The notes below the pieces were generated by a model. The model was given only the letters and a program-made list of their open reading frames with translations. It did not search any database and was not told the DNA's origin. Position numbers and translations under genes: made by a program. A DNA stretch of 64,000 nt from Alphaproteobacteria bacterium (GTDB taxonomy: Bacteria > Pseudomonadota > Alphaproteobacteria > CADEGL01): positions 13,540 through 77,539 of the forward strand of contig JBFXED010000019.1 of the NCBI GenBank assembly GCA_050180485.1. Reading direction: 5' to 3'. Positions 8,766 to 33,848 of the stretch are shown here, one piece after another; the first letter of the stretch is position 1; the number at the start of each line of letters is the position of its first letter.

Positions 8766-9245
8766 TCAGGGCTGGTTCTGGAACAGCATGAGCGTGGCGC
8801 TGCCGTGGGCGTAGAGCTTACCCTGGAGATCGGTCAGGCGGGCCTCCGCCGTGGCTATGCGCTTGCCCTGATGGATGATCTTTCCTTCGCAGCGGACCCG
8901 GCCGGTCTTGGGGGTCATGGGACGCACGAAATTGACCTTTAACTCCAGCGTGGTCGACGCTCCGCCGGCATCCTGGGTGGTCAGGGCGGCCGAGCCGGTC
9001 GCACTGTCGATCAGCGCCGCGGCCAAGCCGCCATGGGCGATGCCCAAAGCGTTGTTGTGCTGTTCAGCAATGTCGCATTCGAAGACGCAGCGGCCGAACT
9101 CCGCCTCCACGACGCGCAAGCCCAGGCTGGCTACGAAAGGCGAGGACGGTTTCTCGCCCCGCGCCATGGCCTGCATGTATTCCAGGCCGGAAACCTTCCT
9201 GCCCCCGTGCACCGGGGCGTCCGGACCGTATTTCGTCTCTGACAT
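8766..9245 (-). CDS. PaaI-family thioesterase
   Basis: HNNALGIAHGG...LIDSATG, TLELKVNFVRP. Confidence 0.9.
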   Translation of the reverse strand: MSETKYGPDAPVHGGRKVSGLEYMQAMARGEKPSSPFVASLGLRVVEAEFGRCVFECDIAEQHNNALGIAHGGLAAALIDSATGSAALTTQDAGGASTTLELKVNFVRPMTPKTGRVRCEGKIIHQGKRIATAEARLTDLQGKLYAHGSATLMLFQNQP

Positions 9246-9262
9246 GGGATCTCCGCGCAACG

Positions 9263-9292
9263 AAGGCCGGTTCGAGGAACCGGCCTTTTTTC
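9263..9292 (+). terminator. Intrinsic terminator-like hairpin with U-tract on the + strand
   Basis: aaggccggttc-gag-gaaccggcctt followed by tttt. Confidence 0.55.
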
Positions 9293-9338
9293 GAGGGGCC
9301 GACCTTACGCGGTCACGCCCTATCCGTCGAGCGGCGGT

Positions 9339-9530
9339 CTAAGAATGACGGCGCTTCCAGTCCCAGATTTCCGCAGGCACGGCACCGCGCGCCAAACCGA
9401 TATCGTCCATCGAGAACGTATCGGGTTTGATTTCCGCCGCATGGGCGGAGCGCGGCGAATCGCCAGCCTGAATCACGTTGGCATCAAGCGGTGCAGAATA
9501 AATCGGGTGCAAGAAGCTGCGCTCTGTCAT
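9339..9530 (-). CDS. 63-aa protein resembling the AlaX N-terminal region (mini-AlaX)
   Basis: M1, T2, F6, Y11, A17, V19 and DWKRRH are shared with the neighbouring AlaX; purine-rich RBS. Confidence 0.5.
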   Translation of the reverse strand: MTERSFLHPIYSAPLDANVIQAGDSPRSAHAAEIKPDTFSMDDIGLARGAVPAEIWDWKRRHS

Positions 9531-9551
9531 CTCTCTCGGTCATCTCTCTCG
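9526..9551. repeat. Exact 13-bp tandem duplication (gtcatctctctcg x2) covering the RBS and start codon
   Basis: 9526-9538 and 9539-9551 are identical. Confidence 0.9.
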
Positions 9552-9682
9552 TCCTTCATACGGCAAACGCGCCGTTGGCGTTTATGGTTCCCCGATCCCT
9601 TCAAGATAGGAGAAGACCGTGACGCCAGAGTGACGGTTGAGAGTGTCGGTCTGAGGGCCGACTTGCGGTTTATTCGGGGCAG

Positions 9683-10390
9683 CTAGACGAATGCGATATT
9701 GATGCGCCGGTTCTGGCGACCTTTGTTCTCGATCTTGCCCACGACCACCTGACCGATCTCGCCCGTGCGCGCCACATGAGTGCCACCGCACGGTTGAAGG
9801 TCGACGCCATCGATTTCCAACAGACGCACTTTCCCCGAACCGGTGGGCGGCTTGACCGACATCGTACGCACCAGACCGGGATTGGCCGCCAGCTCGTCGT
9901 CTGTGATCCAGCGGGGATGCACAGGATGGTCCTCGGCCACCAGCCGATTCAGATCGGCGGTCAGCTTCTCCTTGTCGATGGCAGTGTTGGGCAGGTCGAA
10001 GTCGAGCCGCCCCTTGGCCTCGCCTAGGGCACCGCCCGTGACCGATCCGGTCACCAGCGAACAAAGAAGATGCAGGCACGTATGCATCCGCATATGGCGG
10101 TGGCGTCGCTTCCAATCGAGTGCGGCCGTGACCGTCTCGCCGACGGCAGGTGGCGCTGCGCCCGGCTCCAGCACATGGGCGGGTTCGCCGGTCGCGGGGT
10201 GCTTGCGGGTATCGGCCACCTGCAATTCCCGGCCGTCGGCGAGGCGCAGAACGCCCGTGTCGCCCGGCTGGCCGCCGCCTTCGGGGTAGAACACCGTACG
10301 GTCAAGGCGGATGCCCGCCTCGTCGACGGACATGACGCGCGCTTCGCAGGATTTCAGATAGGCGTCTTCGCGAAAGAGCTCGTCGGTCAT
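9683..10390 (-). CDS. alaX: Free-standing alanyl-tRNA editing protein AlaX (AlaXp)
   Basis: TVFYPEGGGQPGDTG, HMRMHTCLHLL (HxxxH), CGGTH. Confidence 0.93.
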   Translation of the reverse strand: MTDELFREDAYLKSCEARVMSVDEAGIRLDRTVFYPEGGGQPGDTGVLRLADGRELQVADTRKHPATGEPAHVLEPGAAPPAVGETVTAALDWKRRHRHMRMHTCLHLLCSLVTGSVTGGALGEAKGRLDFDLPNTAIDKEKLTADLNRLVAEDHPVHPRWITDDELAANPGLVRTMSVKPPTGSGKVRLLEIDGVDLQPCGGTHVARTGEIGQVVVGKIENKGRQNRRINIAFV

Positions 10391-33500: not shown

Positions 33501-33848
33501 ATGCAAGACTACAGCGAAATCCTGGTCACGTTACCTCCCCGCGGCCCCGCGCCCCTGCCGCTGGGCGGAAAGTGGCCGGGTCCCGTCCCCCTCGTCCGCG
33601 AGCATCTGGACGAGATCGTGGCCGAAGCGCGCGAGGATCGCGCCCGCGCCGTGCGTGAAGCTGCGTGGTCTCTGATCCATACCGCGATCGCGCCGTTCCG
33701 CGCCTTGGCGCGTTCCTGGCGCGCCTGGCGCAAACACGAGCGCGACATGGAAGAACTGCTGCAGCTCGACGATCGCGCGCTCGCCGACATGGGTATTTCG
33801 CGCTACGACGCGCTCGTGGCAGCCAAGAGCGCCCGTCGCCGCGACTAG
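33501..33848 (+). CDS. DUF1127-domain protein (long form)
   Basis: C-terminal RSWRAWRKHERDMEELLQLDDRALADMGISR. Confidence 0.8.
   Translation: MQDYSEILVTLPPRGPAPLPLGGKWPGPVPLVREHLDEIVAEAREDRARAVREAAWSLIHTAIAPFRALARSWRAWRKHERDMEELLQLDDRALADMGISRYDALVAAKSARRRD

Follow-up and report, generated by a model that had tools for sequence, protein, structure and literature searches.

A small gene behind alaX in an alphaproteobacterium is probably a reduced DUF1127-type gene and probably not an AlaX paralogue

The locus considered here lies in a 64,000-nucleotide stretch of alphaproteobacterial DNA, the whole of which we call the window and to which all unqualified coordinates refer. On the minus strand the order is an EamA transporter gene, alaX, a small open reading frame (ORF), a PaaI/4HBT-type thioesterase gene, phzF, and a MaoC dehydratase gene. 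The three central genes, and the parts of the small one, are as follows.

9683-10390, minus strand: alaX, encoding a free-standing alanyl-tRNA editing protein of AlaXM type, 235 aa
9339-9530, minus strand: the small-protein gene, 63 codons and a TAG stop, DUF1127-like and alaX-linked
8766-9245, minus strand: the PaaI/4HBT-type thioesterase gene, downstream of the small gene (Pfam 4HBT, E 5e-15)
9495-9530, minus strand: N-terminal 12-mer of the small protein, MTERSFLHP(I/V)YS, near-invariant in the genus alignment (pN/pS 0.17)
9423-9494, minus strand: variable linker, residues 13-36, with in-frame indels only and predicted disordered (pN/pS 0.69)
9345-9422, minus strand: C-terminal module, residues 37-62, DTFSMDDIGLARGAVPAEIWDWKRRH, a DUF1127-type DIGL core followed by a W-x-W-K-R-R tail (pN/pS 0.12)

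The alaX product has Pfam matches to tRNA_SAD and tRNA-synt_2c; among NCBIfam models AlaXM scores best, at 226 bits, under the 300-bit cutoff. The small gene encodes a 63-aa protein, MTERSFLHPIYSAPLDANVIQAGDSPRSAHAAEIKPDTFSMDDIGLARGAVPAEIWDWKRRHS. The thioesterase gene beyond it is syntenic in genera g1, g2, and g4 and on metagenome contigs.

Judged against its relatives, the 63-codon ORF is a genuine gene under protein-level purifying selection, not a decaying remnant, and its translation is predicted. Three other genomes of the genus carry it as an uninterrupted, syntenic frame, at 67%–77% identity, and it is intact in all relatives examined. Public genomes and metagenomes together hold 20 protein clusters of the family (55%–100% identity, all 61–70 aa), and in their alignment a near-invariant N-terminal 12-mer and an invariant C-terminal 25-mer enclose a variable linker whose indels are all multiples of three. 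Across eight loci the NG86 estimate of dN/dS is 0.26 for the small gene and 0.07 for both alaX and the thioesterase gene. When all six frames were compared, the annotated frame alone combined a low pN/pS (0.36) with zero stops; the ratio was 1.1–1.5 in four other frames, and 0.51, with 11 stops, in the antisense frame that shares its wobble positions with the ORF. Variable sites in the conserved blocks are distributed 9/4/25 over the three codon positions. An earlier note on this DNA had proposed a selected protein-coding gene or else a decaying duplicate, to be abandoned if the ORF were broken in relatives or dN/dS lay near 1. Neither was observed when both were checked, and of the two proposals it is the selected gene that is borne out.

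DUF1127 is among the largest bacterial small-protein families and includes YjiS of E. coli and Salmonella, CcaF1 of Rhodobacter sphaeroides, and small proteins of Agrobacterium tumefaciens; its molecular role is debated, with RNA binding and sensor-kinase binding as the two positions. Across genera and metagenomes the family studied here has a core of the form [ED]-D-[YH]-D-L-N-D-[IV]-G-L-[AV]-R-G-A-V-P, usually then W-x-W-[RKC]-R-[RH]. The DIGL of the window protein (residues 43–46), which sits within SMDDIGLARG, is invariant in 20/20 family members; orthologues have LND[IV]GL[AV]RG, and DIGL is a highly conserved motif of DUF1127 (PMC11707872). At 63 aa, with the DUF1127-type motif at residues 37–55, the protein is small and carries the motif near its C-terminus.

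We consider it probable, at roughly 70%, that the small gene is a stripped-down, DUF1127-derived variant, the positional orthologue of a DUF1127 gene that stood behind alaX in the ancestor of the order. The evidence for this homology, from profile comparison and positional orthology, is moderate and not conclusive. The decisive observation is one of synteny. In each of three genomes of genus g5, a canonical DUF1127 gene, scoring 46.7 bits against a cutoff of 23.3, follows alaX on its strand at a distance of 219 bp and has the core LHDIGLTRGDIPY; the corresponding core in g2 is LNDIGLARGAVPY. The g5 pair is flanked by a PALP enzyme gene upstream and a different gene downstream, unlike the window, so that what has been conserved is alaX paired with the small gene. 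In all newly found lineages the small gene is directly behind alaX. An AlaX tree (midpoint root, for display only) places g5, together with g3, as sister to g4+(g2+g1), the clade carrying the reduced form; no small DIGL ORF was found behind alaX in g3. Among the matches listed for 54 other alphaproteobacterial genomes with AlaX, no adjacency of alaX and DUF1127 within 4 kb was seen. The g5 gene (L055 994-1266, minus strand; also L057 and L058) encodes 90 aa; the N-terminus, MVYTVEWLAWRERD, is W-rich and conserved, and the long tail, rich in Asn and Asp, ends in AA.

Sequence comparison points the same way. By BLASTP the g5 protein matches the g2 orthologue at E 5e-6, a single syntenic comparison, and the window protein at E 2e-4. 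The pairwise profile comparisons with DUF1127 were made after the motif had been noticed, so that their P values are not blind: with hhalign, the family matched the g5 genes at 86.5% probability (P 4.6e-6), rising to 90.9% (P 1.2e-6) with the expanded family, and matched 30 local DUF1127 sequences at 76% (P 2e-5), rising to 82.6% (P 1e-5). None of 200 column shuffles (0/200) reached the observed score against DUF1127. With hmmscan over all 24,736 Pfam models, DUF1127 (PF06568; gathering score 23.3 bits) was the sole family returned for 8/10 orthologues outside genus g1, at E 0.012–0.18 and 12–16 bits, over profile positions 22/23–35 of 37 (~13 positions). The window protein and 19 genus-level homologues gave no Pfam or NCBIfam match, even at E 10, and the small ORF was not among the matches when this genome was searched with the DUF1127 HMM at E ≤10. 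This genome has four canonical DUF1127 copies, none of which was retrieved when the small-family HMM was run on its six-frame ORFs. One of the four lies elsewhere in the window, at ~33705-33812 on the plus strand (G000:C19:47244-47351), and scores 37.5 bits. A profile search of 1.84 billion representative proteins recovered the family itself, one g4 orthologue, and two repetitive, spurious-looking proteins, with four representatives at E <0.001.

We call the small gene a reduced variant, and not a regular member of DUF1127, because its score is below threshold, the arginine-rich half is missing, and the protein has only 7.9% Arg and a net charge of -2 (orthologues have 10%–14% Arg); typical DUF1127 proteins are ~14% Arg and positively charged (PMC12501420). 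The likeness consists in small size (53–90 aa), an alphaproteobacterial host with several paralogues, an identical D-I-G-L inside D-x-x-L-x-D-I-G-L-x-R, a C-terminus with many aromatic and basic residues, and a genomic slot shared with the canonical gene of sister genus g5. The difference is that the small protein lacks the arginine-rich N-terminal half (profile positions 1–22), has a W-x-W-K/R-R-R tail and a genus-specific N-terminal 12-mer of its own, and is always encoded directly behind alaX. A short-tail DUF1127 subfamily ending in KPFWR was considered as a source of the tail and set aside (38.6% probability only, with the tail unaligned).

It could be argued instead that this is an order-restricted orphan family, born in the alaX–thioesterase spacer, with a DIGL core that is convergent and a g5 DUF1127 gene that is there by coincidence. 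Such an origin would suit a family this narrow (the four representatives noted above), with a composition unlike that of DUF1127, no match at a curated threshold, and a similarity to DUF1127 that spans only 13–28 residues. We regard it as unlikely, since motif and genomic slot coincide, the BLASTP and hhalign (91%) matches to g5 would have to be fortuitous, DUF1127 emerged as the sole Pfam family from eight of ten unbiased scans, and the DUF1127 signal rises as more divergent members are added.

The likeness to AlaX involves one further feature, located by direct sequence reading.

10100-10117, minus strand: the DWKRRH codons of alaX, residues 92-97

The earlier note had taken the small protein for a miniature paralogue of AlaX, produced by internal deletion of a duplicate and aligning without gaps with the AlaX N-terminus. 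Its individual readings were accurate. The N-terminal identities it listed (M1, T2, F6, Y11, D/E16, A17, V19) are present, and DWKRRH occupies residues 57–62 of the small protein and residues 92–97 of AlaX, six residues before HTCLH. The codons are GAC TGG AAG CGC CGT CAT in the small gene and GAT TGG AAG CGA CGC CAC in alaX, with four synonymous third-position differences. The gapless alignment holds for the N-terminal identities, but it cannot contain both matches, since the two proteins are in register at the N-terminus (offset 0) and shifted by 35 residues at the tail.

That the ORF is an internally and 3'-deleted alaX duplicate, kept to serve AlaX, without catalysis of its own, as decoy, regulator, or assembly partner, nevertheless deserves a hearing. 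The small gene adjoins alaX on the same strand, the N-terminal and tail matches are collinear, and g4 orthologues keep E-W-R-R-R. The hexapeptide matches at 6/6 positions and is all that BLASTP aligns between the two proteins, at E 0.004 for the single pair; ranked among all 34,651 six-frame ORFs of the genome, the same match comes 7th (blastp-short, E 4.1) or 132nd (blastp, E 91). Anchored at Met1, the first 12 residues resemble the AlaX N-terminus at p ~0.004 against the crude N-termini of this genome and at 0.02 among those starting with MT, and the shared pattern, M-T-E-x-x-F-x-x-x-x-Y, is found at 7/8 genus-level loci. The 12-mer is confined to that one genus, however: orthologues in g2, g4, and metagenomes begin MVLAF, MSSTQ, MNAPF, MKAFL, or MSDAA. 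A17 and V19 belong to the variable linker, and the family does not conserve them. The W-x-W tail is missing in genus g2 and in the P0035 orthologue. The Lys of the AlaX hexamer is unique to this genome, the seven related loci (n = 8 loci) having DWERRH or DWDRRH, and the small protein has WDWKRRH throughout the compared loci. Exact DWKRRH is thus common to both proteins in this genome only, and the N-terminal pattern in this genus only; the residues shared with AlaX are not those conserved across the small-protein family, and the core that is conserved in all genera, DLNDIGLARGAVP, has no counterpart in AlaX.

Profile and DNA comparisons likewise fail to bear out the duplication. The hhalign score of the family against an AlaX alignment does exceed all 200 column shuffles, but the probability is 4%–7% over 8–10 columns and falls as the family alignment is broadened, from 7% over 8 columns to 4%. 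AlaX was absent from the small-family matches in the search of 1.84 billion representatives and was not retrieved by the small-family HMM from all six-frame ORFs of this genome. Between the small-gene region and alaX, blastn found chance matches of 7–17 nt only. Measured against the AlaX/AlaXM editing domain (tRNA_SAD; NCBIfam NF040865), the small protein lacks the editing core, with neither HxxxH nor CxxxH; it ends in DWKRRHS and has no Pfam or NCBIfam match. Only 78 bp follow its stop codon, which leaves no room for an editing-domain relic. A duplicate would moreover require two deletions, one internal and one 3', and near-total divergence elsewhere, and we hold this origin to be very unlikely. 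The small protein is probably not an AlaX paralogue. The DWKRRH identity is best read as a lineage-specific variant of the family tail, W-x-W-[KR]-R-[RH], that happens to coincide with the D-W-x-R-R-H of AlaX, with no evidence of common descent, and the N-terminal resemblance we leave as coincidence. Even a conspicuous short match to an adjacent gene, as here, can be a coincidence peculiar to one lineage.

It is scarcely credible that the ORF is untranslated and owes its conservation to a leader, a small RNA, a regulatory region, or an opposite-strand gene (plus-strand ORF 9345-9686), for although the intergenic DNA on either side is likewise well conserved in the genus and the antisense frame is open in four genomes, substitutions concentrate at the third positions of the ORF, pN/pS is lowest in its frame, indels keep to multiples of three, the protein motifs persist at 40%–50% identity in other genera despite diverged DNA, and there is no Rfam match.

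On the reading of the small gene as a reduced DUF1127 variant, the ancestor of this alphaproteobacterial order would have had a DUF1127-family gene directly behind alaX. In the lineage leading to this genome the arginine-rich N-terminal half would have been lost or replaced and the C-terminal half kept, that is, D-x-x-L-x-D-I-G-L-x-R-G-x-V-P and then a short aromatic and basic helix, W-x-W-K/R-R-R. An AlphaFold2 model built on the family alignment has a mean pLDDT of 62 and a pTM of 0.23, values too low to support a search by fold. It leaves residues 16–35 below a pLDDT of 50, as a disordered linker, and places short helices at 41–44 (the DIGL motif) and 53–61, with a pLDDT of ~84 at the C-terminus. 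The disordered, variable linker may thus tether the C-terminal module to the genus-specific N-terminal 12-mer, so that the protein would amount to two short conserved binding elements on a flexible tether. A profile search across the PDB gave a sole match, to the NHR3 peptide of human CBFA2T1/ETO (2kyg chain C), at E 0.022. It aligns AMADIGSASGYVPEEIW with SMDDIGLARGAVPAEIW of the small protein, at residues 37–52 (window 9375-9422). The peptide comes from an unrelated eukaryotic context, and the match is almost certainly due to chance.

Among characterised DUF1127 proteins, CcaF1 binds RNA (PMC8034643) and other members bind the sensor kinase PhoR (PMC12501420). By analogy, the small protein would bind a partner through its conserved C-terminal module. 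We infer that a protein is more likely to be that partner than RNA, because the arginine-rich half has been lost, the protein is not rich in Arg, and its net charge is negative. The persistent adjacency to alaX makes AlaX a candidate partner, but the matches listed for the rest of the class showed no further case of it, and the linkage may simply be inherited. Since the two genes remain neighbours in genera whose flanking genes on both sides differ, one could go further and see in the alaX-linked DUF1127-like proteins dedicated partners of AlaX, with the W-x-W-K/R-R-R helix and, in this genus, the AlaX-like N-terminus docking on AlaX or tRNA(Ala) and tuning the trans-editing of mischarged tRNA(Ala). 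We rate this as a long shot. If it were true, this would be the first DUF1127-type small protein tied to translational quality control; as matters stand, the small gene's invariable place next to alaX is a weak hint at a possible link with tRNA editing.

If descent from DUF1127 is correct, this lineage keeps the DIGL half of the domain, without the arginine-rich half, still under clear purifying selection. The DIGL half would then be functional without its arginine-rich companion, which bears on the question of RNA versus protein binding, and the small gene would provide a natural minimal DUF1127 construct. The lineage is missed by both Pfam and NCBIfam and exemplifies how eroded small-protein genes escape annotation.

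Three further features lie at the start of the small gene and on either side of it.

9526-9551, minus strand: 13-bp tandem duplication, GAGAGAGATGACC twice on the coding strand, in this genome only (1/8 loci)
9531-9682, minus strand: the spacer between alaX and the small gene, 152 bp, with conserved blocks in the alignment of four genus members
9263-9292, no strand assigned: GC-rich hairpin, conserved across the genus, in the interval that separates the small gene from the thioesterase gene

In the four-genome genus alignment the duplication is seen in this genome alone, and the other seven loci have a single copy. With it, the ATG that follows the AAGGA Shine-Dalgarno sequence at a distance of 8 nt is out of frame and begins an ORF of 19 codons; the true start survives only because the ATG is part of the duplicated unit. 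The strain may translate its small gene less as a result; alternatively, the duplication may be an assembly variant. Scans of 9150-9800 found no Rfam family and, in the spacer, neither a sigma-70-like promoter nor a minus-strand terminator. Several blocks of the spacer are invariant across the four genus genomes, for example CTCAACCGTCACTCTGGCGTCACGGTC and GGCGCGTTTGCCG. In the hairpin, stem changes between genomes are compensatory (GGCCGGTTC/GAACCGGCC versus GGCCGGCTT/AAGCCGGCC). Its T-run is on the plus strand; on the minus strand, which carries all the local genes, the stem is preceded by an A-run.
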